64,000 nucleotides of DNA from positions 1-64,000 of the IMG/VR virus record IMGVR_UViG_3300013772_000003; one strand, 5' to 3'. Origin of the DNA: a virus. The notes beneath the pieces are model-generated. The model did no database searches. It was not told where the DNA came from and saw only the letters and a list, made by a program, of their open reading frames with translations. The number at the start of each line of letters is the position of its first letter. Positions within the stretch are counted from its first letter, which is position 1. Positions 25,756-64,000 of the stretch are shown piece by piece. The translations under genes and the position numbers were made by a program.

Positions 25756-25835
25756 TTAAACAAAACCCCCGAGCAAAACGCTCAGGGCTCTGCTATTAAC
25801 TCAAAAGCAAAACCAACAGATGCTCGAGCAATATT
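25756..25835 (-). ncRNA. Candidate antisense sRNA 'B': hairpin with CUGUUGGUUU loop followed by intrinsic terminator
   Basis: UAUUG-CUC-GAGCA[UCUGUUGGUUU]UGCUU-UU-GAG-U-UAAUA, then CCCUGAGC[GUUUU]GCUCGGGG-GUUUUGUUU; loop complementary to AAACCAACA upstream of many genes. Confidence 0.65.
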
Positions 25836-29149: not shown

Positions 29150-29170
29150 TTGTGGAGTATTGTTGCAAAG

Positions 29171-32810: not shown

Positions 32811-34154
32811 TTAAGGAGCTAATGGAGTACAAGGTGTGCAAGCCTCTACTTCTAAAGTATTACATTCTCCTGCACAACCTGCTAACCAGTTTGCAACAAA
32901 CGTTTCAAACGATCCATTGATGAGACTTGTAATGATCTCTAAACGATACTGCTCTTCTTTTGGAGTTCTTACGTTGTCATGTGTTACAACATGGTGTATA
33001 AGCACATACTGATAGTAACGAGCTGTAGGGGATCTGCTGATTGCAGTTAACTCCTGATTACCTTGTGTAATCTCACGGATACGCAAATCAGAGTTAAACG
33101 GATTCTGACGATACTCTTCAGACATGATTAGATCACGTAACGCCTTCTCACCAGAGCCCATTGATTGTAAGCCCGGACACTCTGTATAAACACAAAGACC
33201 AGTAAATTCGCAAGGATCTCCTTCAAAATCTACTAACTCAGCATAAAATTTAAGTGGTTCGATCTCGTAATGATCTGTGTATTGGAAAGTACAATCAAGG
33301 AAGTTTGTAGAAACAAACGCACCTAAAATACGCATACCTGCATATTTACCTGCTAAGAAGCCCGGAGATACATACTTATCCCACTCACTTACTCCGCCGT
33401 TGGTTCCGGGAGCATACCATGCTGTACCGTTTTGATCGTAAACAATAGGAGACAAGAAATCCTTCATGTAAGGACTTGTTGTAATTTGACTTGCCCAAGA
33501 GATAAACACAAGAGTTGAATCAATAGCGGCAGGAACCGGACCTGTGCAACATGCAGCAGGAAAAGTCACTAATTGATATGCGTTGTGGTTAAGCGCACGC
33601 AATACCGGACCTCCTTTGATGTCGATACGTAAGCTGTAAGACTCTCCACAAAGGAAAGTAAAACAACACTTTGGATCAGTTGGTGATAATGTTTTTGTGT
33701 AATTGGTAGTACCAATGTGCATCACTTGTTGTTGTGGTGCACATGGATCTACGCGATAAAACTTCGTTACCTTATTAGGGTCGATCTTACGAGACTTTGG
33801 AGTCTCAGTAACACCTCCGTATGTAGGAGATAAAATATCATTTGTAAATACCGAAGCCGAAGCTAACAGTAAAGGACAGCAACCAAGACCAGAACCGCCT
33901 CCGGCTACTGATTTAAAAGTTGAAGCATCAAACATACCAAAAGTACCCGTACCAAACGTACCAAACGTAGATAAAGCGTTGTAGGGAGCAACCGAAGAGT
34001 TTCCGACTGCGGGGTTTCCGGGGGTTTGATTTAAAATTTGGGTTGATAAGCCTGCGGTGATTACGAAACCATTTGAGAGATTTGCGTTTGCATTACCTTT
34101 GGTTGTTTGCGTTCCTACGAATACCTTCGTGGGCGCGTGGTTAAAATAAGCCAT
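32811..34154 (-). CDS. Auxiliary capsid / major structural protein (crAss gene-73-like)
   Basis: 447 aa; MAYFNHA..KVF start, CGESYSLRIDIKG; own promoter and terminator; synteny. Confidence 0.65.
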   Translation of the reverse strand: MAYFNHAPTKVFVGTQTTKGNANANLSNGFVITAGLSTQILNQTPGNPAVGNSSVAPYNALSTFGTFGTGTFGMFDASTFKSVAGGGSGLGCCPLLLASASVFTNDILSPTYGGVTETPKSRKIDPNKVTKFYRVDPCAPQQQVMHIGTTNYTKTLSPTDPKCCFTFLCGESYSLRIDIKGGPVLRALNHNAYQLVTFPAACCTGPVPAAIDSTLVFISWASQITTSPYMKDFLSPIVYDQNGTAWYAPGTNGGVSEWDKYVSPGFLAGKYAGMRILGAFVSTNFLDCTFQYTDHYEIEPLKFYAELVDFEGDPCEFTGLCVYTECPGLQSMGSGEKALRDLIMSEEYRQNPFNSDLRIREITQGNQELTAISRSPTARYYQYVLIHHVVTHDNVRTPKEEQYRLEIITSLINGSFETFVANWLAGCAGECNTLEVEACTPCTPLAP

Positions 34155-34248
34155 GTGGAGTGTTTTTAGTTTAGTTTTTCAAGTGACGTTCACTAATGCA
34201 GCAAAGATATATCAACAACTCTGATTCAATCAAAAAAGTTTTCAACAC

Positions 34249-38479: not shown

Positions 38480-40114
38480 TCACATACTAAAACCCGTAAT
38501 TGGGTTCTTCAACGTGATTTTTAATATCTTACTCGGATCTTTTACCCAAACCGCTTTGTGAGCCTGCTGCATAAACACTCTGAATCCAGAGAATTCTCCG
38601 CTTGACTGATGTCCATTGCGACCTAAGTAGTCCATAGTACCGTTTTGGTATCTCCAACGTAAAGCACCAGCATCTCCTTCTTTTTGTAACAGGAAGATGT
38701 TGTCGTTCGTGTTGTTAGTTACGTCAAAAATCAAGAAACTATAAGAAGATAATGGATACCCGTCGATCAACGGATTCTCAATATCGTTCGTGTTAAAGTT
38801 GTCTAACGCCGGGTTAATTTTGAAAGTCAAATTAGCCAAGAAAGGAATTTTGTACTTAGTGTACGCATATCCGAATCCTAAGTTCATGCTCTGACCTTGG
38901 ATTGCTCCGATACCGTCTTTCTCCGCTGCTTGGATAAGGAATCCAGCACTTGCTGCTTCCTGCGCGATAAGTTCGTTTACCATACGCATTCCTCCCATAC
39001 CTGTTTGCACTTCGATTTCGCGAAGAGAATCAGGACCGGTTAAACCCACACGACCCGCGTAGAAGTTGTATAACTGAGAACGGAATAAATCAAGAGAGAA
39101 GCTTGCTTTGTTGTAAACATATTTGTATGCGCTGTCTAACTGCTTCCAAAGACCAGTTGACATACGTAAATCATCAGCACCATCGCGCTGAATACGTCCA
39201 CCTTTACCCCACATCAAATAAGTTTCGATGTCAAGAGCCACTTTAGAAACGTGAGCCGCTTCCATTGCAGTTAAGAAAGTATAAGATAAACGTCCATCAG
39301 CATAAGCGTCTTTCATATACGCACCACCTTTCTTCGCTTTTAACTGCTCAAGAGAGGTGATTGTTGCGATTGAAGGATCGTTTTTATCCTTGATGTTCCA
39401 AATTTCTGTTACGTTTAACGCCCCTTGTGCGCTTACTCCGTTTTTTGCCATTAAAGCTGCACGATCAGTCACTGTAAAGTGAGCGTTAGCATCAGTTTGC
39501 CCAACGAAGTTGTACCACTGACGAGCGCCTGAACGAATCGAAACGTCATCATATTTACCCGGATACTCTCCAGTAGCACTTGTTACACGAAACACCTTAG
39601 TTCCATTAGCAAGATACTTATTATCCAAGAAATTTACGTTTGCGTTATTCACCAAACGAACTGTGTAAATAAATCCATCACCTATTGGTAAAATAGGATC
39701 AGCAGTCACATACATCTCAGCACCGTTGAATTTATCGAAGGTGAAGATTGCGCTGTGACCAAACTCCTGACGGTTTAATTTCACACGGAAAGTGCTTCCG
39801 TCAATACCTTTTGTGGTATTTGATGGATCAATGTCCTCAATGATATAAGGAAGATCCTGAGAAATTGGAGTTTCCCAAGTATATTCTCCGCGAATACCGG
39901 CAACTTTGATTGTGTTTTTTCCTCCAAAAGAAGAAAATTGATATAAAGGCATCTCGACTTTTTGAGTCATTGCCCAAATATCCACAGGACCTAAATCCAT
40001 AGGTTTCACATCATGCAACATATTGCGCATGTGGTAAGAGTCAATGTGAGAAGACGCATTCAGTGTTGTGTCTCGTAGGAATATCCCCGAGCCGGAGAAA
40101 TTAGGAGTTGCCAT
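38480..40114 (-). CDS. Major capsid protein
   Basis: 544 aa; crAss-like MCP features (ETYLMWGKGG, STGLWKQL, TGMGG, VWVKDPS); order portal-scaffold-MCP. Confidence 0.9.
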   Translation of the reverse strand: MATPNFSGSGIFLRDTTLNASSHIDSYHMRNMLHDVKPMDLGPVDIWAMTQKVEMPLYQFSSFGGKNTIKVAGIRGEYTWETPISQDLPYIIEDIDPSNTTKGIDGSTFRVKLNRQEFGHSAIFTFDKFNGAEMYVTADPILPIGDGFIYTVRLVNNANVNFLDNKYLANGTKVFRVTSATGEYPGKYDDVSIRSGARQWYNFVGQTDANAHFTVTDRAALMAKNGVSAQGALNVTEIWNIKDKNDPSIATITSLEQLKAKKGGAYMKDAYADGRLSYTFLTAMEAAHVSKVALDIETYLMWGKGGRIQRDGADDLRMSTGLWKQLDSAYKYVYNKASFSLDLFRSQLYNFYAGRVGLTGPDSLREIEVQTGMGGMRMVNELIAQEAASAGFLIQAAEKDGIGAIQGQSMNLGFGYAYTKYKIPFLANLTFKINPALDNFNTNDIENPLIDGYPLSSYSFLIFDVTNNTNDNIFLLQKEGDAGALRWRYQNGTMDYLGRNGHQSSGEFSGFRVFMQQAHKAVWVKDPSKILKITLKNPITGFSM

Positions 40115-40116
40115 TT

Positions 40117-40123
40117 GTGGAGT
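40117..40123 (-). promoter_or_regulatory. ACTCCAC translation-initiation-region motif upstream of MCP (representative)
   Basis: Also at 29152, 32742, 34155, 44892, 58867; ACTCCAT at 34963 and overlapping ATG 51296. Confidence 0.8.
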
Positions 40124-40158
40124 TTTTAGTTGTTAAGTTGTTGTTTTTTTTGTTTAGT

Positions 40159-41562: not shown

Positions 41563-42117
41563 TTAACAGGCGACTTTAAAGTTTAAATTTGCAAATTCTC
41601 CAAAATGTTTTTGTGCAGCAGAATCATAAGCCATTGCTGCCATTAATTCTCCTTCTGGAGTGAAAGGAAAAAGTCCTAATCTTATCTTTGTTCTATCGGG
41701 ACATATTTGCGATAACCAGTAAGTATACTCATACTCTCTAATTCCGGGCTTTCTTTTATTTGTACGAACACACTTCTGTATATACTTACACACTCCTAAA
41801 AACCCAGAGCTACTACCCGCTCTTGAAATTGTATTTACTGCATTTTGCTTTGGAGTAGCTATTCGTAAGTTTTTTCGTTGGTTATCTAATGTATCATGAT
41901 TCTCGTGGTCTACAACCTTCTTATCCCCCTTAATACATCCCATAAGTTGCCGGTGCATTTTTATGTGATTACGTGTCCCGTCCCTACGCTCCGCATACCA
42001 AGCAGGCGCTTTACGACTCTCATCCCGATGCGCAAACCACTTCCATTGCATCAAGAAATCATAATCCTCGTCATCTACTTGTGCAAATTTTCCTTGTGTT
42101 AGCGGAATTAATTTCAT
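41563..42117 (-). CDS. HNH homing endonuclease with AP2-like domain
   Basis: IPLTQGKFAQVDDEDY, VVDHENHDTLDNQRKNLR, AAMAYDSAA..FGEFA. Confidence 0.9.
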   Translation of the reverse strand: MKLIPLTQGKFAQVDDEDYDFLMQWKWFAHRDESRKAPAWYAERRDGTRNHIKMHRQLMGCIKGDKKVVDHENHDTLDNQRKNLRIATPKQNAVNTISRAGSSSGFLGVCKYIQKCVRTNKRKPGIREYEYTYWLSQICPDRTKIRLGLFPFTPEGELMAAMAYDSAAQKHFGEFANLNFKVAC

Positions 42118-44888
42118 TTCTTTTTTGTTTTGTTTTTAGCAGCAAGTTCTGATTTTGATTTATTTTCTTTGGCTATTTGTAAATCTATGTTTTTCATCTG
42201 CATCTGTAACGCCATTTTCTCTCGCTGCACCTGCTGCTTGTCATTATTTAAAAGCTGTTTAGATTGCTCTTTGCTTTTTTCCAAATTCATTTGTTCGGTG
42301 AATGCGTCTTGTTTTTGTATTAAGCCCATTGCATCAAGAAATTCATTCTGCCCATTCGCGTCCACATCAACCGCACTACCATAACCAGCAGCACGTATCT
42401 CAGCAACAAGAACATTATTCTTCTCTCTGTTCGCTGCTAACACAGCCTCTCTATCATAAGCTAATTGGGATTCTTTTGCTATAGCTTCGTTTTGTGCATC
42501 CTGCATTTGTTGTTCATGCGCACGCTCTTCCTCTTTTGCCTTGGACGTTTTTTCTTCTATAGTTTTGAGTACGTGCATAACTTCCGCCTTAGAATCACCG
42601 TTAAACATCAGATCTCCTAAATCGTATATGGTAGCACCCGTAGTATTGTTAGTCATCGCCTGCTTCTTAAATTCTTCAAGAAGAGTTCTTGTCATTGAGT
42701 CCGTTGTACATTCCACGCCGATTTGGGCAAGAAGCAACTCTGTTCCGTTGATTTCAAAATTCACACGCTCATCTTTAGATGTCACGTACTGCAATCGTAT
42801 AGAAGGTTTGGTAGACTGATAAAACTGAGCAAGGTCTGTTCTCATCTGATGGACCCTTGGGAGTAAACGATCTGTATACCTTGTGAAATAAGGCTCTGTT
42901 TGTGCATAAGAAGCGTTCAGATTCTGTTCCGCACCGGTTGCAGTCTGTCTGCCCAACTCTTGTCCCATACGCTGAGGAGTCACTCCTATTGAAGAATATG
43001 CTTCCTGTTTAAAATGGTTTGCAAGATTGATACGACTTAATAGACGCTGCGTCTGTGACAGATCAAGTTGAGCATACGGCTGTCCACTTATCTGTCCTTC
43101 CATATTAGCAACAGAGGTATCAATGGGAATTACTCCAAAATTCTTTGCAGCTACAAAAGCTTTTGCAAAGTTGTTTTTTCCCCAATCCTCTCCAAGAGAA
43201 TGTTGTGGAAGTGCATTTTGATCAAGCATAATAACAGTACCAATCTCGTCGATCAGGATGTCCTGAATCTGATTGTTCACCATATTGTACCCCACCTGAA
43301 ACGGTTTCAATAAGTCTACAAGAGAAATAGAACGAGTATTATAGTCAGAAAATACTGCACCCTCAACCGGCAACTTACACCCGTAAAGCGTTTTGTCCCC
43401 CTTAAATTGAAACTTCAAGGGACCCATTTGGTTTTGATTTATTCCAAGATAGAGTGGATTCACTCCGCCGGGATTCTTCATTCCCCACCAACTTGGACGG
43501 TTAGGACCTATTTTAAGTCCTCCCCATGTTTGGTTAATCCAAATCCATTCTATGTGCTCACCAAAAACCAATGTGTCAGCATCTTTGTTTTTTAGCAGGA
43601 GGTTGTTGTAAACCGGATGATCGGTCACTTTATAGTCCTCATCAACGATGTCTGTAATTGTTTCCCCGTTCTCCTTAATCTTTGTAAGATGCCCTACCTT
43701 ACGCTGAGATTTCCAATAAATAGTAGATGCGCGTAATAAAAACGTAGAGCCCAAATCCGTGTAATCTTCCTGCTGACTCATTATCCAATTGATAATATCG
43801 CCATTATTGGCATCTAAATCGCGGGTAGAAACAAGTTGTCTGTAAGCTAAACCCGGAGGTGCTGTGTTCCACTCATGGCTTTGCGTAGCATCATAATATG
43901 ATCCATCGTTTTGGTACCCGGATAATCCATAACCAACAGCTCTAACAGGGTAAAGTATCTCCAAAGATTCCAATTGCTCTGCGGTCATTAACCATCCATA
44001 CTTATCTACAACGTCTGCCACGGTAAGCATTTCTACGTTTCCTACATAATTACCTTCGGACACGTAACGAACCGAAGGAGACTTATGGTAAAAGGTTGTA
44101 ACCGGGTTCCATGCCTCAATATCATAATCATCTTCCAACATACGGAAGTGAAAAAAAGCTCTGTCGGCAGACAGGCTATTACTAAAGTTAAGTTCCTCTA
44201 ACTCTTTTAATTTAAAATGCGCTGTATCTGCGTGGAATTGGTGCATCGCCCACTGCTCTGACATACTGCGATAAGTCTTACTGTAAAATTGGTGTATCTC
44301 AGGAAGCGACTTCAAACTGTCTGGGGAAAGCTGTTGCTTCATCTGCTCCTGAACCTGTGGATCATTCGGGTCAAGTCCTTGTTGAATCATATTGTTCAAC
44401 ATTTGCTTCTCCGCGTCTGCCATAAGCACGTCACTTATTTGAGAAATTTTTTGAGCGTCTTTTTCGTTTTGTGAAAACTCATCGGTGTTATAAAAAGTAA
44501 TTTTACTGTTTCGTTTTGCAAACTCAGAGCAGAAAGTATTTATGATTGGAGGAATGAGGGGATAAAAACCAAGCTCCAAACCGATAGGCGCTTCTTTCTG
44601 TGTAAGAACTTCTGCAAGGTCGCGCATCTCATTATCCTGAACAACCATGTAATCACTGTTGTCAATAATTCCTTTGGACAGTTTATAATTTTTCATCAGT
44701 CGCGGAGCGTTGCGACGTATTTGTTTTAGTCCGTTCCATTCTAAAAAATCTATGGTGCTCGCTAAATGTTCGGGTGTTTTATCTTTGCGAGGAAGCATCT
44801 GAATCGGCATACTAAGAACGCCCATAGAATTAGTCTCTGGCGAAGCTTTCTTTCCTTTGAACAAATCGTAACTTGACAAAACTTGCAT
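42114..44888 (-). CDS. Portal protein
   Basis: 924 aa following TerL; FYPLIPPII, LVDLLKPFQ..YN, GVTPQRMG motifs. Confidence 0.9.
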   Translation of the reverse strand: MQVLSSYDLFKGKKASPETNSMGVLSMPIQMLPRKDKTPEHLASTIDFLEWNGLKQIRRNAPRLMKNYKLSKGIIDNSDYMVVQDNEMRDLAEVLTQKEAPIGLELGFYPLIPPIINTFCSEFAKRNSKITFYNTDEFSQNEKDAQKISQISDVLMADAEKQMLNNMIQQGLDPNDPQVQEQMKQQLSPDSLKSLPEIHQFYSKTYRSMSEQWAMHQFHADTAHFKLKELEELNFSNSLSADRAFFHFRMLEDDYDIEAWNPVTTFYHKSPSVRYVSEGNYVGNVEMLTVADVVDKYGWLMTAEQLESLEILYPVRAVGYGLSGYQNDGSYYDATQSHEWNTAPPGLAYRQLVSTRDLDANNGDIINWIMSQQEDYTDLGSTFLLRASTIYWKSQRKVGHLTKIKENGETITDIVDEDYKVTDHPVYNNLLLKNKDADTLVFGEHIEWIWINQTWGGLKIGPNRPSWWGMKNPGGVNPLYLGINQNQMGPLKFQFKGDKTLYGCKLPVEGAVFSDYNTRSISLVDLLKPFQVGYNMVNNQIQDILIDEIGTVIMLDQNALPQHSLGEDWGKNNFAKAFVAAKNFGVIPIDTSVANMEGQISGQPYAQLDLSQTQRLLSRINLANHFKQEAYSSIGVTPQRMGQELGRQTATGAEQNLNASYAQTEPYFTRYTDRLLPRVHQMRTDLAQFYQSTKPSIRLQYVTSKDERVNFEINGTELLLAQIGVECTTDSMTRTLLEEFKKQAMTNNTTGATIYDLGDLMFNGDSKAEVMHVLKTIEEKTSKAKEEERAHEQQMQDAQNEAIAKESQLAYDREAVLAANREKNNVLVAEIRAAGYGSAVDVDANGQNEFLDAMGLIQKQDAFTEQMNLEKSKEQSKQLLNNDKQQVQREKMALQMQMKNIDLQIAKENKSKSELAAKNKTKKK

Positions 44889-44939: not shown

Positions 44940-47183
44940 TTACCCGAAGTTCTTAAAAGGATTTCTGTCCGGTTTATACACGCTTCCTTTTTGTTGTTGT
45001 CCTAAGTGTTTAAATGCTGTCTTTTTTATATCGTAAGGATTGACATAATCCTTTTTTTGTTCCTTATCCAAATTCTCTTTTACCTTCTTATTTCCTCTTA
45101 TTGCGTGCTGCACCTTCAAAAAGGCAACTAATGCTGCAAATGCTACAAGTCTATCCACGTTAAGCCCTTTAACGTATGCCTCCATCTCTTTCAGGAGCAT
45201 TATGTCTGGAATACGTTCTATTCCGTAAGTTACTTTTACCGGCGTTCCGTCAGGCAAAAATTCGGTGTGAAGTTCCTCTTTTAAAAAATCTATTGCATAG
45301 TTTAAATAGTCATTAGAAAAAACCGTGCCTGTATTTCTCCACCCAAATTCACAAGGAGTGTTGTTGGTTGTAGCTCCGAACTCTTTCCTAAAAATCATTT
45401 GATCACCGGGAACTAAATATTTTGTTTTCTTCTTATGCTTCATGTGCTGAATAAATCCAGAAATATTCACCTCCACAACAGTCCACGCATTGTACAACTC
45501 AATTAACATTTCGCACAACTCATGGTTTTTGTTTACATCTTCATGCCTTCCGCACCATGATGCCACGATCTTACCCCCTTCTATGAAAATTTTAGTTTCT
45601 CCTTTCTGTGTACGCTCTACCTCAATATCTCGCTTATAAACAATAATGCTCACCAAAGACACTGATGAATTTGTACCTCCAACGTCAACCGGATCTATTG
45701 ACGCATAGTAGGTGTCCCATTCTGGATTATCCCTCGGACGCTCATAAATAGTAATACAGCCCTCTTTGCTATTTGCCCGCTTTGATAAAGGGAACTCCAT
45801 AATGGGAGATTTGTTTGTAGGTTTAAAAATAACTTTCCCGTTTTCATTCCTCTCCAACTCCACAAACTCCATCGGATAGGCTTTTGTTTCAATACGACGC
45901 ATTTGTGCCGCAAGAAGATTTGTAGGAAAAATAGAATCCTTACGAATCGCAAAAGCCTCTTTAATAGATAAAGGACGCTGAGAGCAATAATACCTATAAG
46001 ATTCGGGCTTCTTTAGTTTCGCACGTTTGCGTCTACGTTCTATCTCAGCGAGGGCTCCTTCTTTGTTTGTATTTCCCCATTTATCATAGAACTTCACGAC
46101 CTCACCTCCCGTCTCATCTTCCTCATCGTCAGAACCAGAAACATAATTCCACCACTCTGGAGCAAAGAATCCAACCTTTTCTCCAAACTCCGCATCATCC
46201 TCAATCTCGTTTACACACCCAAGAAAATCATTATCTTCAGGATTCAAAATGTAGTGCTTCAATGCATCCGCTTTTTCCAATTCCCCCACCGCTCCGGAGT
46301 ACATGATCAACCCCGTAGTTAATCCTCCCAAAGACACGTTAGAAGTAATATATTCGTGAGTCTTTGCTCCTGTACCGTTTTTACCAAACTCTTCTCCAAA
46401 AATAACGGTTGCAATACCTCCAACGCCGTTGGTGGGGTCTTGCTTAGTTGTAAATCCTTTTGCAATAGACATATTCCCTACATACCCAGAGCCATCCTTT
46501 TTCTTCCTACGTATCTGCCAGTCTAACTTTTTTGAAGGGTCGAATCCTCGTTTCCATCCGCAGTACGTGTTAACATGATCTCGATACTTCTCCATAAGTC
46601 CCCACGAATCCTTCACGGAAATTTCATCAGACGCGAATACTTTAGCAACAGAGCCCTTCCCAAACCAAATGTCATTCATAATGATTGACATATTCTTCAG
46701 AGAATATCCTGCTTGACGTTTCTTTAAAATAACTCCATATTTTCTGCGTAAAATACAACGAAGGATATACAAATAATAATGGTAGTCTCCGTCGTAAATT
46801 TCAGGAAGGTCTGGACGCTTTTTTACTTTATCAGGTATTGGACAATAATTAAGATACCAATACATCAATCCGGGAACTGCATACTCTAATTTTTCAGATT
46901 TCTTTTTGTAGATAACAAATCCATCGAACTTACATTTTTCTTTTTCTGCATCCCAATGTTTTTTGAAGTCAAGGGATTTGCTCATGTAAACAGGGTATTG
47001 TCCTGTCTTCTGCCAAATCTTTCCTTGTGCGTTCCAATACCCGTCTGTATATTTTAAACGATAATTCCCGGGATACTTTACTTGCGAATTTATGTATTGG
47101 ATTACTTCCCTCTGTGTTTCAAACTCAGTGGTTCCCCATGTTTCGGTATCGAGATTATATGTAGGGGCGGAGTAGTAACTCAT
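44940..47183 (-). CDS. terL: Terminase large subunit
   Basis: 747 aa; ILKKRQAGYS Walker A, IFGEEFG Walker B, ASIDPV and NVDR nuclease motifs. Confidence 0.92.
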   Translation of the reverse strand: MSYYSAPTYNLDTETWGTTEFETQREVIQYINSQVKYPGNYRLKYTDGYWNAQGKIWQKTGQYPVYMSKSLDFKKHWDAEKEKCKFDGFVIYKKKSEKLEYAVPGLMYWYLNYCPIPDKVKKRPDLPEIYDGDYHYYLYILRCILRRKYGVILKKRQAGYSLKNMSIIMNDIWFGKGSVAKVFASDEISVKDSWGLMEKYRDHVNTYCGWKRGFDPSKKLDWQIRRKKKDGSGYVGNMSIAKGFTTKQDPTNGVGGIATVIFGEEFGKNGTGAKTHEYITSNVSLGGLTTGLIMYSGAVGELEKADALKHYILNPEDNDFLGCVNEIEDDAEFGEKVGFFAPEWWNYVSGSDDEEDETGGEVVKFYDKWGNTNKEGALAEIERRRKRAKLKKPESYRYYCSQRPLSIKEAFAIRKDSIFPTNLLAAQMRRIETKAYPMEFVELERNENGKVIFKPTNKSPIMEFPLSKRANSKEGCITIYERPRDNPEWDTYYASIDPVDVGGTNSSVSLVSIIVYKRDIEVERTQKGETKIFIEGGKIVASWCGRHEDVNKNHELCEMLIELYNAWTVVEVNISGFIQHMKHKKKTKYLVPGDQMIFRKEFGATTNNTPCEFGWRNTGTVFSNDYLNYAIDFLKEELHTEFLPDGTPVKVTYGIERIPDIMLLKEMEAYVKGLNVDRLVAFAALVAFLKVQHAIRGNKKVKENLDKEQKKDYVNPYDIKKTAFKHLGQQQKGSVYKPDRNPFKNFG

Positions 47184-49385: not shown

Positions 49386-49514
49386 TTAACGCTTTATCAT
49401 GTTCATGTTGGTGAACTTTGGGTTTTCGCGAAAGGTTTTGAGCCAATCTAAGAAGTGTTTGTTACGTTGATTCGCACTTGTCTTTGCTGTTCTTTTTCGT
49501 CCTTGCTTACTCAT
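49386..49514 (-). CDS. Small basic hypothetical protein
   Basis: Likely start ATG 49514 (MSKQGRKR), fills the gap between neighbours. Confidence 0.55.
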   Translation of the reverse strand: MSKQGRKRTAKTSANQRNKHFLDWLKTFRENPKFTNMNMIKR

Positions 49515-49516
49515 AA

Positions 49517-49726
49517 CTATACCTCTAAAAGTTTCTTTGCTTCCTCGGCGTCCACCGCCTCGATAATTTCCACCACATGCTCTGCCCAAGTTTTATCGCA
49601 CATTTCCTGCTCCAATATTCCAACCAATTCTGTGGTACCCTCGGCTTTACTCCGTTCCATTTTTCCCTTCTTCCATATCCCAAACTTATGGGTTAATACT
49701 TCGATTACTTTTTCTCTATTTTTCAT
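49517..49726 (-). CDS. Hypothetical protein, paralog of 49728-49940
   Basis: 69 aa; MKNREKVIEVLT...EAKKLLEV. Confidence 0.75.
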   Translation of the reverse strand: MKNREKVIEVLTHKFGIWKKGKMERSKAEGTTELVGILEQEMCDKTWAEHVVEIIEAVDAEEAKKLLEV

Positions 49727-49727
49727 A

Positions 49728-49940
49728 TTATACTTCTGTTAGTTTTTTAGCTTCCTGCGCGTCTATCATTCCAATAATGTCCACGACACTCCTCGCCAAA
49801 TCTTCATGGGTCAAGGTGGGTTGGTCTAATATTCCAATGGTTTGCGTAGCACCGTCCTCCATCTGTTGCACTATTTTTCCCTCTCGCCACATCTTAAACT
49901 GGCGAGTTAATGCTTCAACAACTACTTCTTTGTTTTTCAT
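49728..49940 (-). CDS. Hypothetical protein, paralog of 49517-49726
   Basis: 70 aa; MKNKEVVVEALT...EAKKLTEV. Confidence 0.75.
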   Translation of the reverse strand: MKNKEVVVEALTRQFKMWREGKIVQQMEDGATQTIGILDQPTLTHEDLARSVVDIIGMIDAQEAKKLTEV

Positions 49941-49942
49941 AT

Positions 49943-50287
49943 CTATTCGTTTTTAATTCCGGTCTTCTCTCTGAATTTCTTTTCCTGTTCCTCTGTCAAC
50001 TCTGCATCCCATAAAGGAAATCTACCTTGGTCTTTAAGCGTACAATAACTGCTCAAGCTCCGGCTTTTAAATTTTATTCTGCATCCGCATCCTGCACAAG
50101 TGGGCGCTCCCGGTACCACAGCTATAGGAGAAGTACCCTCTTTATCATAAAGCCCGCAAGCATTGCTTTCACAGAGCTTAGTCCTCTTTTCTGCTATCGT
50201 CTCCACATAGCTGTTCGGAAACCAAGTGTACCGAATCCCTTCGGCTATTTTCCATCTGTTCTTCCAAATATTTAATAATTTTTTCAT
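49943..50287 (-). CDS. Zn-finger protein of the crAss-like packaging region
   Basis: R..LC...C...CAGCGCRIKFKSRS...C...W. Confidence 0.7.
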   Translation of the reverse strand: MKKLLNIWKNRWKIAEGIRYTWFPNSYVETIAEKRTKLCESNACGLYDKEGTSPIAVVPGAPTCAGCGCRIKFKSRSLSSYCTLKDQGRFPLWDAELTEEQEKKFREKTGIKNE

Positions 50288-58506: not shown

Positions 58507-58860
58507 TTAAACTACGGTATCAATTCTAACAGATCCTGCTGTAACAGTATAAGGCATTCCCAAAAGGGTTTTACCTGACGCAGAGTCAAACCCATAAAAA
58601 GTAGAAGCATTGGCTGTAACGCCATTTATGGTTCCGGTAAAACCGGTAGAAGTTGTAAATCCTATGGAAGTAGCGCCGGCAGCAACTGAACCGGAAGCGG
58701 CAGTACTTATAGAGGTAACGGTTTGTGTCCCTCCTGCACCAGCTCCTGCCGCAATTATAATAAGTTGATCCTGAATAACCTTCTGCATCTGCAGCATTGA
58801 CAACTGCCACTTAAAGTTGTTGCCTTTACTGCCGTCTGTGTGATCGTGACCTACGCCCAT
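58507..58860 (-). CDS. Small structural protein, first gene of late region
   Basis: 117 aa; DGSKGNNFKWQ N-terminus, G/T/S-rich; ACTCCAC motif and TATCTTTA promoter variant upstream. Confidence 0.65.
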   Translation of the reverse strand: MGVGHDHTDGSKGNNFKWQLSMLQMQKVIQDQLIIIAAGAGAGGTQTVTSISTAASGSVAAGATSIGFTTSTGFTGTINGVTANASTFYGFDSASGKTLLGMPYTVTAGSVRIDTVV

Positions 58861-58994
58861 GATGTTGTGGAGTTAATGAGTTTGGTGTAAAGATAGTGTG
58901 GATTCAGGAAAATTTCGATACTCGCGGGCTTAGTGTAGCCAAAAACTTATTAACAATGTGTTTTTTGTAACAAAGTACTCCGTAAATTTGCCTC

Positions 58995-59125
58995 AGTTGA
59001 GGATAGCTTTTTAGAAGGGGCTGTACTCCACAACCAAAATATTAAAAATAGTCGCAGTCACACTGCACAAAATATCCCTTAACCAAAGCCCCTTCTGTTT
59101 ACTCGGTTGGGGATTTTTGTTTTTA
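58995..59125 (+). promoter_or_regulatory. Structured 5' leader / attenuator downstream of TAAATTTG promoter (58983-58990)
   Basis: AGAAGGGGCT (59013-59022) complementary to AGCCCCTTCT (59087-59096), which lies in the loop of a terminator-like stem 59067-59084/59105-59120. Confidence 0.65.
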
Positions 59126-59129
59126 GGAT

Positions 59130-59843
59130 ATGTACATAGCAATAGACACCATACAATACAGTGCAGATAGCGCAGAAGCAAAAGACCTTGCTGCCTTCCT
59201 TTGGTTTAAAAGCAAGTACTCAAATTCCTGTTACTTTAAATGGTCTTTAAAATCTATTGCAGATAAAACAAAAGTTTCTCGCACTGTAGTTCGCAAATAC
59301 ATCCAAAAATTCATCGAACTCGGCTGGTGCCGAGTGCATGGGAAAAATCTTATCTTCAAAAAAACCTCTGAATTATACCTCATTAATACAAGAAAATTAT
59401 ATGTAAAAATAAACCTTGAAGGGTCGATGCGAGACATCCTTGAGGAACTATTCCTCGCACTATTAAAAAGAAAAGCAAATCAATTTGACTTCGTTAAGCA
59501 ACTCTGGGGAGACAAAAGAAATGGTAACACTGAATCTGTTGGACACTACAAAAAAATTCAAAAATTTTGTAAAGGTCGAGAGGTAAAGCAAAGTGCAATC
59601 CAAGGATTTTCTTATTCGCTATCAAAATGCGCCAATCTTTTTAACACATCTATACCAACAACCTCAAGAATACTTCGGAGTTTATACAAAAAAGGAAAGT
59701 TTGTAACCGTAAAAAACTCCGTAGTTCTTGGAAGTATTAAAAAATCTCGCGGAATGCGAGAAGCATTAAACCACGTTCCGGGAGCCTTTGTTTCTTCCTC
59801 CGGACTTATAATAAAGAAACTATGCAATTCATATATTTTTTAA
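59130..59843 (+). CDS. HTH DNA-binding protein, possible replication initiator/regulator
   Basis: 237 aa basic; two wHTH-like segments (SLKSIADKTKVSRTVVRKYIQKFIELGW; SLSKCANLFNTSIPTTSRILRSL). Confidence 0.65.
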   Translation: MYIAIDTIQYSADSAEAKDLAAFLWFKSKYSNSCYFKWSLKSIADKTKVSRTVVRKYIQKFIELGWCRVHGKNLIFKKTSELYLINTRKLYVKINLEGSMRDILEELFLALLKRKANQFDFVKQLWGDKRNGNTESVGHYKKIQKFCKGREVKQSAIQGFSYSLSKCANLFNTSIPTTSRILRSLYKKGKFVTVKNSVVLGSIKKSRGMREALNHVPGAFVSSSGLIIKKLCNSYIF

Positions 59844-59951
59844 GCATGTTCTTTTTTGATAACATATTATGGTAACTCATAAGGTTATGTGCTTAGTTAT
59901 AATTTTTTATATATTAATAGCAGTAGTATACGCACCATACAGCACAGAGAG

Positions 59952-60587
59952 ATGAGAAGAAAGAGGACGTCCAAAGCACATAAGTCGTTTATCAAGAAGT
60001 TGTTTAGACGACAAGACCCTAAAGCCTTTGTGGGCATATACAAGATAACTTGTAGCATTACGGAAGAATTCTATATAGGAAGTTCAACGGACATCTCTAA
60101 AAGATGGAAGTGGCATCTATACGAACTTAAAAACAAAGTGCATGGTAATTATCGCTTACAAGGACTATACAACACGCACGGAGAAAAGGGATTGACTTTT
60201 GAAATCATTTGGAAGTCAAACATAAAGCCTATGGACAGGGTAAAGCTATACGAAATAGAGCAGGGGCACATTGACAGGCTCAAACCCACTATTAATATCG
60301 AACTGATTGTATCTATCGACGGCAAAAGGGCGGCTGCTAAAGCAAGACCTGCAAAAATAAAAGCTCTAAAAGGAAACGACCAGCCCCTCCCACAACATAA
60401 ACCAAAGAAAAAACAGCCCAAGAACAAAAAGTACAACCACCTCAAAAGAAAAGATAATAGTCCGACGGGTCTTGCAAAACGTATTGCAAAGGCGATTGCG
60501 ATTCTAAACGCGCCCCCACGACCGGGAGGGGTAAATCCCCACAAAAGAAAACATACCTATAACGCAGGTAATAGAAAAATGTGGTGA
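59952..60587 (+). CDS. GIY-YIG homing endonuclease
   Basis: VGIYKITC..EFYIGSS..ISKRW..H, E...I...P.IN; basic tail; start ATG 59952 likely. Confidence 0.88.
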   Translation: MRRKRTSKAHKSFIKKLFRRQDPKAFVGIYKITCSITEEFYIGSSTDISKRWKWHLYELKNKVHGNYRLQGLYNTHGEKGLTFEIIWKSNIKPMDRVKLYEIEQGHIDRLKPTINIELIVSIDGKRAAAKARPAKIKALKGNDQPLPQHKPKKKQPKNKKYNHLKRKDNSPTGLAKRIAKAIAILNAPPRPGGVNPHKRKHTYNAGNRKMW

Positions 60588-60618
60588 ACCTAATACCAGA
60601 ATAACTACCACTTGCCGG

Positions 60619-60795
60619 TTACTCCACAACATGTCCTGAAGATTCCATAACGGGAAACTCTTGCTCCTTTTCAGGATCATTAAATCTGTGGTATACCCAT
60701 ACCTTACTGGTGTAAGTTTGCTTGTTCTTCTTTGCGTGCACAACACGAAGAAATGCTGCTACTTTTTGTAGCGTTGTTTTTTGTTCGGCTTCCAT
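60619..60795 (-). CDS. Small hypothetical protein (58 aa)
   Basis: MEAEQKTTLQKVAAFLRVVHAKKNKQTYTSKVWVYHRFNDPEKEQEFPVMESSGHVVE; below ORF-track cutoff. Confidence 0.5.
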   Translation of the reverse strand: MEAEQKTTLQKVAAFLRVVHAKKNKQTYTSKVWVYHRFNDPEKEQEFPVMESSGHVVE

Positions 60796-60952
60796 ACCTT
60801 TTGTTTTTAGTGAACATTAAAGGTATCTTAAGCACAAAGAGGTTGGTGGTAAAATTCGATGAAATGGGAGTTTTTATAGCCAAATAAAGCAAATAAAAAG
60901 TAGAAATATCTACTTCCTGAAAAAAACACAGGATCAGCTTGGAAAGAGCCGG

Positions 60953-61339
60953 TTACTTGCGCAAAATTCTGTCATAAAACAACGAGAACACTACATTCCA
61001 CAAGCAACCTGATACACAGAACATAAGTACAAAACAGTACCAAGGAAGTTCTATTGTCGCAGTGTGGGCGATGTATCCTACTAAGGCAATCGTTGCACAA
61101 AGACAAACAATCATAATACTTTTGAAGCAATGCCATGCATCTGTGAAGGCTACAGGAATACTCCGTTGCGGTTTAGTAGGATCGCTGTCTACATATTTAT
61201 TCTTCCAACTAATACTTGGGTCCCAAAAAGTAGCGTTCTTATTCCAGAAAACAGAAGTAGTGTAATGATGTACCAAAGTGTCCATAACAGCATTGGATGC
61301 GGCAGCAATCATAAATAGGAGTATTGAAAGTATGATCAT
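60953..61339 (-). CDS. Membrane protein
   Basis: Three TM helices; AVMD...FWDP..SWKNKY...FTDAWH.FK motif. Confidence 0.75.
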   Translation of the reverse strand: MIILSILLFMIAAASNAVMDTLVHHYTTSVFWNKNATFWDPSISWKNKYVDSDPTKPQRSIPVAFTDAWHCFKSIMIVCLCATIALVGYIAHTATIELPWYCFVLMFCVSGCLWNVVFSLFYDRILRK

Positions 61340-61596
61340 CTTGTCCGCCCGGCTTTATCATCCTGATAATTCTGATACGTCTTGAATAGGTTTACCCAAA
61401 ACATCAGGTTAAGTATTCCGGTGAGTACCCAAAACGAAGTTAACTCCATCGCGCCGGAGTGCACCTGCACTATTCCTGTTATCTGAGAGATTATATAAAA
61501 CAGGTAAATAAATATTTCTACTACTGTGTAAGGGGCGCCTTTTCCAAGTATCCATTGGATAAACGTTTTTTTATTTGCGTTGTCGATTGGTTCCAT
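61336..61596 (-). CDS. Two-TM membrane protein
   Basis: ATG 61596 (MEPIDN) after TACCTTTG at 61601-61608; alternative start 61665. Confidence 0.65.
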   Translation of the reverse strand: MEPIDNANKKTFIQWILGKGAPYTVVEIFIYLFYIISQITGIVQVHSGAMELTSFWVLTGILNLMFWVNLFKTYQNYQDDKAGRTR

Positions 61597-62000
61597 ATTG
61601 CAAAGGTAGGAAAATATTGTACAGCAAAAAGCCGGTACTATTATTCCCGAATCAAAAAATCCCATGTTGGTTATGTGTTGGTATAAGGCAAAGATAGAAA
61701 AATTTTTTTATATAATTTTTTTTGGTACTTTAAAACCTATGTACAGGGTCGTGTTTAGCTTGTACCCCCCTACTCACCGGCACCCCAAACCAAATGGGCA
61801 CCCTACCCCCACCTCTTAAATAAACTCAATCCTATAGTATAGGGAATTATCCAAAGAGACTCCTTTTCTTGTCCAGAGAATATTCTTTATTTGAATAGCT
61901 TGTTCTCTTCTTATGATATGTTATCTACTTCAGGATATTCTTTGTTGTTCTTATCCTTGCCTCGCTCCTTGATTGTATATTAGTGATTACCCCGCGTTTA

Positions 62001-62058
62001 GGGGACATTAAGCCCCTCGATTACGCAGATTTGGTATACCAAAGGGTTTATTGTCTCC
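62001..62058 (+). other. Long hairpin with internal 14-bp palindrome at start of early region
   Basis: GGGGACATTAAGCCC (62001-62015) pairs with GGGTTTATTGTCTCC (62044-62058); TTTGGTATACCAAA at 62030-62043. Confidence 0.65.
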
Positions 62059-62106
62059 GCTCGGCACAGCAATCGCATATTGCCGTTCATTATCAATCAC
62101 TTACAA

Positions 62107-62118
62107 TCTCACCCCAAA
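62107..62118 (+). promoter_or_regulatory. TCTCACCCC(A/T)AA early-gene motif (representative)
   Basis: Also at 62508, 63335, 63867; 25-36 nt upstream of ATG. Confidence 0.8.
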
Positions 62119-62146
62119 TCATTATAAACCCTTAATCTATCTTCAC

Positions 62147-62278
62147 ATGGAAACAATCGTATCACCTGCCGCATATAATGCTGCTGTAAAAGCCTTAAAA
62201 AAGGCACAAAACAAATTGATGAAAGCTCGTGTAGAACATGAGATAGCTTTGATTAACTACACTAAACAAGTAAGCTAA
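62147..62278 (+). CDS. Small early protein (43 aa)
   Basis: ATG 62147 (METIVSP) downstream of TCTCACCCC motif. Confidence 0.6.
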   Translation: METIVSPAAYNAAVKALKKAQNKLMKARVEHEIALINYTKQVS

Positions 62279-62279
62279 C

Positions 62280-62519
62280 ATGGAAAACCTATTCGAAACA
62301 TTAGGGGAGTGCTTACGCCCCGAACTTAGCGCTGAACTACATAAACGTCAGACTAAGTGTACTATCATTCAGGATATTGACCGCGCTTGGTTGCTTGCTA
62401 AAGCTAAACACCTCAGCCCCAAACAATTCGATTACCTTTATGAACTTGACATAGATCAACTCTATGAAGTACAGAATAACATTCGCAATCTTTGTCCTCT
62501 CATTCAATCTCACCCCTAA
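62280..62519 (+). CDS. Early hypothetical protein
   Basis: 79 aa, coupled to previous gene. Confidence 0.7.
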   Translation: MENLFETLGECLRPELSAELHKRQTKCTIIQDIDRAWLLAKAKHLSPKQFDYLYELDIDQLYEVQNNIRNLCPLIQSHP

Positions 62520-62540
62520 CCCCTTAAAACCTCATCACAA

Positions 62541-62747
62541 ATGATCATATCTATTATCATGGAGGGCGCACTTAAATTAGTGCAGCTAATCCGGTACAGC
62601 AACAACCAAAGAGTTGCGAGAATCTTTAACCCAAAGGACAGCCGTGTTCCTGAAAGAGTGTTAGACCTTGATAATCAGGGGAGAGCAATCGACGATGAAA
62701 CCGGTAAAACCTATAGGTTTAATATCAGGAATTGCGCAGAAGCGTAA
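62541..62747 (+). CDS. Early hypothetical protein
   Basis: 68 aa downstream of TCTCACCCC motif. Confidence 0.7.
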   Translation: MIISIIMEGALKLVQLIRYSNNQRVARIFNPKDSRVPERVLDLDNQGRAIDDETGKTYRFNIRNCAEA

Positions 62748-62752
62748 ATCAC

Positions 62753-62831
62753 AATGATCGAGCCAGTGGAGTGGCTTAGTTGTTAGAGTACAGCGTTCCA
62801 AGCTTCGGTTTGGGCGCTGTTTCTTTTTATT
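62753..62831 (+). ncRNA. Candidate antisense sRNA 'A': hairpin with GUGGAG loop followed by cUUCGg intrinsic terminator
   Basis: AAUGAU-C-GAGCCA[GUGGAG]UGGCUU-A-GUUGUU, then ACAGCGUUCCAAGC[UUCG]GUUUGGGCGCUGU-UUCUUUUU; loop complementary to ACUCCAC upstream of structural genes. Confidence 0.65.
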
Positions 62832-62866
62832 AGGATTTGTCAGTCGTGTGTTATATCTTTGTAGGT

Positions 62867-63346
62867 ATGAAAGAAATAAAACTTACCAAAGGACTTGTCG
62901 CCCTTGTGGACGATGAGGATTACGAATGGTTAAATAAAACCAAATGGCACGCAAAGACAGACAAATTAGGATACACCTACGCCTATGGAAACTTCAATAA
63001 AAAGAGGAGAACAATGCACAGGGTAATTATGGAGCAAACAAACCCCATAAATATTGTAGATCATAGAGACACGGACGGACTAAATAACCAACGACATAAT
63101 TTAAGAGTTTGCACAAAAACCCAAAACAATTGGAACAGTGTTAAAAGAAAAGACAGTAAGAATAACCACAAAGGGATAAGAAAACACTATAATAAGTTTG
63201 TAGTAGAAGTCCGAGTTAACAGGAAACTAATCACTGTCGGGCGCTACAATACTGAATTAGAAGCTATCATCGCATACAACGAATTCATCTTAAAAGAAAG
63301 GGGTGAATTTGCAGTCCTTATCCCACTACCTCATTCTCACCCCTAA
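62867..63346 (+). CDS. HNH homing endonuclease with AP2-like domain
   Basis: Start ATG 62867 after TATCTTTG (62854-62861); IKLTKGLVALVDDEDY, IVDHRDTDGLNNQRHNLR, AIIAYN...GEFA. Confidence 0.9.
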   Translation: MKEIKLTKGLVALVDDEDYEWLNKTKWHAKTDKLGYTYAYGNFNKKRRTMHRVIMEQTNPINIVDHRDTDGLNNQRHNLRVCTKTQNNWNSVKRKDSKNNHKGIRKHYNKFVVEVRVNRKLITVGRYNTELEAIIAYNEFILKERGEFAVLIPLPHSHP

Positions 63347-63367
63347 CCACACTAAAATTCATCACAC

Positions 63368-63526
63368 ATGAAAACAAAAACATTATCACGTATTGGGTTA
63401 GCAGGAGTATTCCTGTCTATACTTATCATAGGAGTCGGGGCACTTATCCTGAACTCAGAGCTTTGCGCAGATGCAGGAGTATGTTTACTTCTTATGTCCG
63501 CAGCAATCAAAGCGTACACAGACTAA
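63368..63526 (+). CDS. Small two-TM early membrane protein (52 aa)
   Basis: MKTKTLSRIGLAGVFLSILIIGVGALILNSELCADAGVCLLLMSAAIKAYTD; below ORF-track cutoff; follows TCTCACCCC motif. Confidence 0.7.
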   Translation: MKTKTLSRIGLAGVFLSILIIGVGALILNSELCADAGVCLLLMSAAIKAYTD

Positions 63527-63542
63527 TCACATTCCATTTGTG

Positions 63543-63790
63543 ATGGAAGTAATGCCCCCACACCTACCAGCACAGGATGTATCCTCGACGACTAAGCTGA
63601 ATGCTATCGAGGGATTGGGGGTAATTACATTAGAACTTCCGACCTCGCCCCTTAACCTTATTGAGAGTAATCTCCATCAGGATAACAGTATTACCCTTGA
63701 TGTCGAACTCCCTCTTCCCTCGGTACGCTTTCCAATACGGTATATCATAGCGCATACAAGAGTTGAAGAGGGTTGTGTCGGCATTGAGTT
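63543..63790 (+). ncRNA. Structured ncRNA candidate (two multi-stem domains)
   Basis: Stems GCCCCCA/TGGGGGT, ATCCTCGA/TCGAGGGAT, CTTGATGTCGA/TCGGCATTGAG, CCCTCTTC/GAAGAGGG; G-U wobbles favour + strand. Confidence 0.55.
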
Positions 63791-63910
63791 GCACAACACC
63801 ATTAATAGTTACCAAATACATCATGTTGCAAATATACACATAATAGATTTGCAATCCAACACCTTTTCTCACCCCAAATTATCATTTAAACCCCTTAAAA
63901 ACCCAAAACC

Positions 63911-64000
63911 ATGAACATCACAATCCATCCAACAGCCCCAAAATACACAAGTAAAGCGGGTAATGAAGTATTCCGTTACATAGTAAAGGGATCTCTTGAG
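63911..64000 (+). CDS. Early gene, 5' part (runs off window)
   Basis: MNITIHPTAPKYTSKAGNEVFRYIVKGSLE..., downstream of TCTCACCCC motif. Confidence 0.65.
   Translation, partial: MNITIHPTAPKYTSKAGNEVFRYIVKGSLE

Follow-up and report, generated by a model that had tools for sequence, protein, structure and literature searches.

Five nucleotides behind the stop codon of a small gene in an uncultured soil phage lies a predicted hairpin, here called hairpin 1, whose loop reads as the exact complement of a heptamer found in front of virion genes on the opposite arm of the genome. The locus raises the question of whether this hairpin is an RNA element at all and, if so, whether the capsid leader, to which its 3′ arm is also complementary, could be its partner, or whether it serves its own mRNA, marks the edge of a gene module, or is without function.

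Genome setting and position of hairpin 1

The window, by which we mean the whole stretch of DNA analyzed, covers positions 1-64,000 of an IMG/VR virus record that is linear, 74.8 kb long and an estimated 62% complete. DNA of this phage was detected in four soil DNA runs, all belonging to one study, and in no other runs. Judged by sequence comparison, the source is an uncultured soil phage that is a distant relative of the crAss-like phages, its capsid protein sharing 24-29% identity with their distant counterparts; a megablast search of the phage collection with the region 60000-64000 returned no close relatives. The virion genes are carried by the minus-strand arm (1-58860), and many small ORFs fill the plus-strand arm from 59130 onward, which would represent the early arm. 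The genes needed for the argument are these:

38480-40114, minus strand: major capsid protein gene (phrog_11589, 5.9e-24; tblastn matches to crAss-like capsid genes)
42114-44888, minus strand: portal gene (PHROG)
44940-47183, minus strand: large terminase gene (PHROG)
32811-34154, minus strand: 447-aa gene (ORF list)
62541-62747, plus strand: 68-aa early-arm ORF, the 3′ UTR of which holds hairpin 1 (ORF list)

Upstream of many minus-strand genes a TAnnTTTG box could be seen, which we take to be the -7 element of the Bacteroidota primary sigma factor, and the host is probably a member of the Bacteroidota. The capsid leaders of 80 relatives (L002-L081, positions 1430-1503) are A-rich, of the TAACAAATAAAAACAAATAAA type, and without a Shine-Dalgarno sequence, as would be expected if the whole group had hosts of the Bacteroidota type.

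The preliminary description had placed a hairpin in an early 3′ UTR, and this was borne out: hairpin 1 folds as described and starts 5 nt past the stop of the 68-aa ORF (stop at 62747). Its parts, all on the plus strand, are:

62753-62784, plus strand: hairpin 1, 12 bp with the 6-nt loop GUGGAG (predicted fold)
62753-58 with 62779-84, plus strand: lower stem, with four G-U pairs
62760-65 with 62772-77, plus strand: upper stem (predicted fold)
62766-71, plus strand: loop GUGGAG (predicted fold)
62766-62772, plus strand: seed GUGGAGU (loop and closing U), exact complement of the ACUCCAC leader tag
62776-62785, plus strand: tail UUAGUUGUUA, the 3′ arm of hairpin 1, complement of UAACAACUAA in the capsid leader

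Given its four G-U pairs, the lower stem would form in plus-strand RNA only. When hairpin 1 and the terminator behind it were folded together, a z-score of -4.0 was obtained. Hairpin 1 lies outside every Rfam family: ctRNA_pT181 (RF00242) reached 35 bits (E = 0.038) and stays below its gathering score of 56, and apart from it no family, C4 included, was matched at E ≤ 1 within 58800-64000.

The 68-aa protein encoded upstream has seven homologues with 76-94% identity, all from metagenomes, and is predicted to form a six-stranded all-beta domain (AlphaFold, pLDDT 90). It belongs to no Pfam or PHROG family, has no convincing match in the PDB (none below E = 0.8 in Foldseek), and a wide fold search returned unrelated beta folds only, with Z ≤ 4.3; searches of IMG/VR for the ORF, with the single sequence and then with the alignment as query, found none. 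An RNA chaperone identity was considered for this protein and found no support from Pfam, PHROG, Foldseek or the wide fold search.

Conservation of hairpin 1 and the cassette behind it

Conservation of hairpin 1 is judged from one relative, L082, plus contig ends, the metagenome scan having yielded two loci of which one ends before hairpin 1. L082 is a 2.5-kb metagenome contig that encodes a homologue of the 68-aa ORF and contains no late genes. It shares 80% DNA identity with the window across 62507-62785, the BLAST alignment stopping exactly at 62785, and the non-coding DNA flanking hairpin 1 is unalignable. Within hairpin 1, five substitutions separate the two sequences, all of them in the 12 positions of the upper stem and none in the 21 positions of loop, lower stem, bulge and tail, so placed with p ~ 0.003 by a hypergeometric estimate (five changes all falling within 12 of 33 positions); the seed is identical. 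A G-C pair is replaced by C-G and a C-G pair by G-C, both through changes on the two sides, and a G-U pair becomes A-U through a change on one side. All 12 pairs are thereby kept, compared with 12-46% in slid controls, in a comparison of two sequences.

The two compensatory pairs and the change from G-U to A-U indicate a real RNA structure, and the restriction of all five changes to the upper stem indicates a constraint on sequence in loop and tail and on structure only in the upper stem. Hairpin 1 is thus, as judged from this alignment, a real and sequence-constrained RNA element. The combination of a fixed loop and tail with an upper stem held in structure alone fits the pattern expected of partner recognition, a pattern that cannot name the partner. 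Each of the five substitutions also alters the peptide of a 10-codon mini-ORF that starts at 62755, none being silent; such changes, which still pair in the stem, favor selection on the RNA structure over selection on the peptide. Exact and degenerate patterns of hairpin 1 found no match in IMG/VR, and the 17 matches to a loose pattern all lie within one unrelated conserved coding sequence.

A different picture is seen for the DNA that follows:

62786-63331, plus strand: mobile HNH cassette, made up of terminator, -7 box and HNH ORF
62790-62820, plus strand: stem-loop of an intrinsic terminator, with the U tract at 62821-62831 (predicted fold)
62854-61, plus strand: host-type -7 box TATCTTTG, five bases before the HNH ATG
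62867-63346, plus strand: HNH ORF (Pfam HNH_3, 28.2 bits against a cut-off of 24.8; phrog_99, 4.6e-31)

The junctions of this cassette are sharp (62785/86 and 63331/32), and the stop codon of the HNH ORF is borrowed from the leader motif of the next early gene. Contigs from the soil runs X1-X4 cover hairpin 1 as well. Three of these contigs, two from X2 and one from X4, match the window as far as 62785 and differ beyond it, with one of the X2 contigs rejoining at 63332. The window and some X3 and X4 contigs have the cassette; L082 and other X2 and X4 contigs lack it and carry a short G+C-rich sequence instead. In L082, the tail is followed by an unrelated G+C-rich hairpin sequence and then by the next early gene. 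Given the divergence at 62785 and the rejoining at 63332, with L082 likewise different, 62786-63331 is a mobile cassette, and the HNH domain above its cut-off together with the presence/absence polymorphism identifies it as an HNH homing-endonuclease cassette. The preliminary description had treated 62753-62831 as one unit. Hairpin 1 is the conserved part of it, and the terminator belongs to the HNH cassette and is missing from other strains, although a second G+C-rich hairpin of differing sequence stands behind hairpin 1 in every variant (window, L082, X2, X4).

The early arm holds a GIY-YIG endonuclease gene at 59952-60587 (plus strand; Pfam 30.5 bits), probably its second mobile endonuclease. 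Among small genes of the minus-strand arm, at 49514-49970, there is a presence/absence variant, in which 19 different letters replace 455 bases in one contig from run X1.

The start-site tag and predicted pairing with the capsid leader

The heptamer GTGGAGT/ACTCCAC occurs in 17 copies, against 5.3 expected. Six of these lie 0-6 nt before minus-strand ATGs, namely those of the capsid, the portal and the 500-, 447-, 185- and 117-aa genes. The leaders concerned, together with one variant, are:

40115-40139, minus strand: capsid mRNA leader UAACAACUAA-AA-ACUCCAC-AA-AUG, proposed main target (opening energy 1.1 kcal/mol)
34155-34171, minus strand: leader of the 447-aa gene, AACUAA-AAA-CACUCCAC-AUG, second-ranked target (8+6 match; accessibility ranking)
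29152-29158, minus strand: tag ACUCCAC, 2 nt before the ATG of the 500-aa gene
32742-48, minus strand: tag ACUCCAC before the ATG of the 185-aa gene
44892-98, minus strand: tag ACUCCAC before the portal ATG
58867-73, minus strand: tag ACUCCAC before the ATG of the 117-aa gene
34963-69, minus strand: variant tag ACUCCAU before the ATG of the 236-aa gene

The distance between tag and ATG is constant and that between tag and promoter box variable, which places the tag in the mRNA start region and not in the promoter. We consider ACTCCAC a true start-site tag on the basis of its enrichment and positions. It is also private to this phage lineage: the capsid leaders of 80 relatives (62-65% capsid identity) all lack it, and in five long distant relatives the pattern ACTCCAC-N0-6-ATG occurs 0-3 times per 70-126 kb, which is near background. 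Hairpin 1 and the tag are both present in L082 and both absent from distant relatives, and this joint absence is compatible, weakly, with an antisense relationship between the two. Further copies were observed in other settings. In L082, ACTCCAC stands in front of an early gene, 3 nt from its ATG; on the plus strand of the window, one copy (59025-59031) precedes the first early gene (HTH protein, 59130) by ~100 nt, counted to the ATG, and another (60621-60633) lies just behind the GIY-YIG gene and has AAC-ATG and a two-codon ORF after it.

Complementarity beyond the tag was claimed for two leaders, and for the capsid both letters and coordinates of the 7+10 match proved correct. Read on the plus strand, 62766-62785 consists of GTGGAGT (62766-72), GGC (62773-75) and TTAGTTGTTA (62776-85), and 40117-40135, which adjoins the minus-strand capsid ATG (40112-14), consists of GTGGAGT (40117-23), TT and TTAGTTGTTA (40126-35). 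At the start of the 447-aa gene, the plus strand reads GTGGAGTG (34155-62), TTT and TTAGTT (34166-71) at 34155-34171. The 8+6 match reported there is likewise present, whereas the name "auxiliary capsid" given to this gene finds no backing, the product of 32811-34154 having no PHROG, Pfam or PDB match.

Among 58 minus-strand leaders, the capsid leader gives the lowest duplex energy (-24.7 vs. -20.9 kcal/mol). The capsid leader site is almost unstructured, and the tail of hairpin 1 is paired in its own 3′ arm, at an opening cost of ~15 kcal/mol. When accessibility is taken into account across 94 leaders, the capsid leader again ranks first (-13.6 kcal/mol), followed by the 447-aa gene (-6.3 kcal/mol) and the 500-aa gene (-3.7 kcal/mol). 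The outcome is that predicted in the preliminary description, and the ranking should be read as partly circular because the match was originally found by eye.

Several controls bear on how often such a match would arise by chance. When the whole 20-mer was shuffled, none of 400 sequences paired as well; when the seed was held fixed and only the 13-nt tail shuffled, 26 of 400 did so with some late leader. The letters of the extended complementarity stand; given the G/U-rich composition and these 26 tail shuffles, it does not clearly exceed chance. Sliding duplex windows along the plus-strand arm placed the hairpin 1 locus third overall and, outside the minus-strand gene block 60600-61700, first by only ~1 kcal/mol; a 45-nt scan without that block again placed it first with a similar margin (~1 kcal/mol). 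Between genes, 115 hairpin loops are predicted; 15 of them match a hexamer that recurs in at least five leaders, and all of these except hairpin 1 and a second hairpin described below (hairpin B) are plain A/T-rich. A BLAST-style comparison of all leaders with the genome did not return the 7+10 match among the top antisense matches, because the 3/2-nt loop interrupts it, and chance antisense matches of 13-19 nt exist elsewhere in the genome. We estimate the chance probability at ~0.05-0.2 for the seed and ~0.065-0.07 for the extension, values that are jointly suggestive, not compelling. Extended pairing with the capsid leader is thus a plausible interaction, top-ranked among the leaders compared and statistically weak.

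Possible roles of hairpin 1

We suggest that hairpin 1 (62753-62785) acts as a base-pairing anti-leader antisense RNA, a reading to which we assign a probability of about 0.4. A kissing interaction between the loop GUGGAG, with its closing U, and the ACUCCAC tag would come first, and this contact could reach the capsid, the portal and four other virion-arm genes, with the tag 0-6 nt before their start codons. On the capsid mRNA, pairing would spread into the tail to give 7+10 bp, to which a few pairs might be added on each side, and would cover roughly -27 to +5, keeping ribosomes off this mRNA while the early RNA is abundant; the net pairing energy is predicted to be favorable despite the cost of opening hairpin 1. 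We infer the accumulation of a hairpin 1 RNA, its pairing in vivo, repression and timing. The host-type promoters of the virion genes could fire from the start of infection, in which case an early RNA that delays translation would make sense. The reverse action, in which abundant late capsid mRNA titrates or destabilizes the early mRNA, is equally compatible with the data, and a link to carrier-state persistence is pure speculation.

Besides the conserved fold, the pattern of constraint, the start-site tag and the ranking of the capsid leader, three further observations can be counted for the antisense reading. The seed lies in the loop, is unchanged in L082 and has its exact complement before six late ATGs; the similarity between strains ends exactly where the complementary tail ends (62785); and there is a precedent for the type of RNA. 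In the crAss-like phage phi14:2, the virion polymerase transcribes the early genes and the host polymerase the middle and late genes, and abundant early non-coding RNAs of unknown function are found (bioRxiv 10.1101/2020.03.07.982082). Against the antisense reading weigh the marginal extension beyond the seed, the other predicted loops that match leader hexamers, the pairing of the tail within hairpin 1, conservation seen in one relative and contig ends, and the location in a mobile cassette of the terminator that would delimit a discrete sRNA. We know of no characterized RNA regulator in crAss-like phages, and none was found in the literature searched. If the proposal is correct, hairpin 1 would represent a multi-target RNA regulator in a relative of the crAss-like phages that addresses a virion gene set via a private start-site tag, and would inform on translation control in Bacteroidota-type systems without Shine-Dalgarno pairing. 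With a 33-nt hairpin and a 25-nt leader, the pair is compact and testable.

The hairpin could instead act in cis, or be bound by protein, as a 3′-UTR element of the mRNA of the 68-aa ORF, be it to stabilize the 3′ end, to provide a processing site, to make the early polymerase pause or terminate, or to serve an RNA-binding protein as its operator, with the complementarity to late leaders a coincidence. We regard this as a serious, if somewhat doubtful, explanation. It is suggested by the position of hairpin 1 close behind the stop codon, always ahead of a second G+C-rich hairpin of varying sequence, by the modest statistics of seed and extension alike, and by the unchanged loop and lower stem, which would suit recognition by a protein as well. 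A purely structural hairpin should however co-vary throughout, and here only the upper stem changes; nor would a cis-acting role account for a loop that is the exact complement of the only start-site tag that is not A/T-rich, or for the margin of 7 kcal/mol by which the capsid leader ranks first with accessibility. Even if hairpin 1 is not antisense, it would still be a clean, sequence-constrained 3′-UTR hairpin at the edge of an insertion site for mobile cassettes.

That edge could itself be the explanation, and the breakpoint 62785/62786 is common to L082, X2 and X4: hairpin 1 may mark the border of the ORF68 module at which cassettes recombine, the neighborhood of the HNH target, or the remnant of a small ORF starting with the ATG at 62755 and cut to 10 codons by the cassette. 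ATCACA precedes this ATG as it does other early-arm starts, and without the cassette the frame stays open, reaching 41 codons in L082 and running on for 10 codons or more in the contig ends from X2 and X4. Selection at the level of DNA or peptide is nevertheless improbable, as the downstream peptides are unrelated to one another, the L082 substitutions all change the peptide and yet pair in the stem, the G-U pairs point to a structure in the RNA of one strand, and a recombination edge leaves the compensatory changes unexplained. Those compensatory changes also oppose the view that the locus is functionless, its likeness to the capsid translation start being left over from an inverted duplication or due to chance, and so does the identity of 22 positions in L082 against a background of 80% and unalignable flanking non-coding DNA. 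About 21 of 26 positions (GCCA, seed and tail) do agree with the antisense strand of the capsid start region, which is what an inverted duplication would produce, and antisense matches of 13-19 nt arise by chance elsewhere in this genome; even so, we consider a lack of function very improbable.

Taken as an anti-leader RNA, hairpin 1 would by analogy work most like c4 of phages P1 and P7 and the kissing-loop countertranscripts, and would resemble 3′-UTR-derived sRNAs in its position. The c4 antisense RNA has one target and arises by processing from the 5′ part of that same operon, immI; its exposed loops pair with short boxes at the translation start of a phage mRNA and block translation. Hairpin 1 shares with it the features of a phage-encoded structured RNA with proposed pairing in trans to a translation start located elsewhere, but lies in a 3′ UTR on the opposite arm and would have six or seven tagged targets. 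In the plasmid systems CopA/CopT, pT181 ctRNA and RNAI/RNAII, pairing begins at a loop of 6-7 nt and extends into the stem, as proposed here, and two hairpins with a U tail are found as in the window; those countertranscripts are cis-encoded and fully complementary, whereas hairpin 1 is trans-encoded and partly complementary. As in CpxQ, SroC and DapZ, hairpin 1 would derive from the mRNA itself and stands directly past the stop codon, with a conserved seed and then a terminator. Here, however, the terminator is not conserved and belongs to the HNH cassette, and those sRNAs come from cellular genes of enterobacteria, in contrast to a phage whose host is probably a member of the Bacteroidota. 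To our knowledge, use of Hfq-type chaperones has not been described in the Bacteroidota. The likeness to GcvB is that one G/U-rich RNA would address several C/A-rich translation starts, with the differences that the seed is linear in GcvB and in a hairpin loop here, and that GcvB recognizes loose C/A-rich enhancers and hairpin 1 would recognize an exact private heptamer.

A second hairpin, hairpin B, lies together with its terminator at 25756-25835 on the minus strand and has an 11-nt loop, CUGUUGGUUUU, that is the complement of another tag, (A)AACCAAC, located upstream of about ten genes; a search for relatives of the gene upstream of hairpin B found none. One could imagine a two-channel RNA code for translation, in which the tags ACUCCAC and AACCAAC mark two gene sets, each with its own hairpin RNA, hairpin 1 (or A) being encoded in the early arm and hairpin B in the virion arm. 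The capsid, portal and other tagged virion mRNAs would be driven by host-type promoters, and early hairpin A would delay them until diluted or titrated. We think such a code somewhat doubtful; if true, it would set the timing in place of Shine-Dalgarno-based control, in a host phylum that makes no use of Shine-Dalgarno sequences.

The small ORFs of the early arm have a repeat of their own, CTCACCCC(T)AA...CATCACA-ATG, which precedes at least five of them on the plus strand by 30-45 nt and is found in L082 too. It may represent an early promoter or a leader cassette. The copies are:

62106-62146, plus strand: early-arm repeat in the window
62509-62540, plus strand: early-arm repeat in the window
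63335-63367, plus strand: early-arm repeat in the window
63868-63910, plus strand: early-arm repeat in the window
68749-68782, plus strand: early-arm repeat in the genome (coordinates of the full record)
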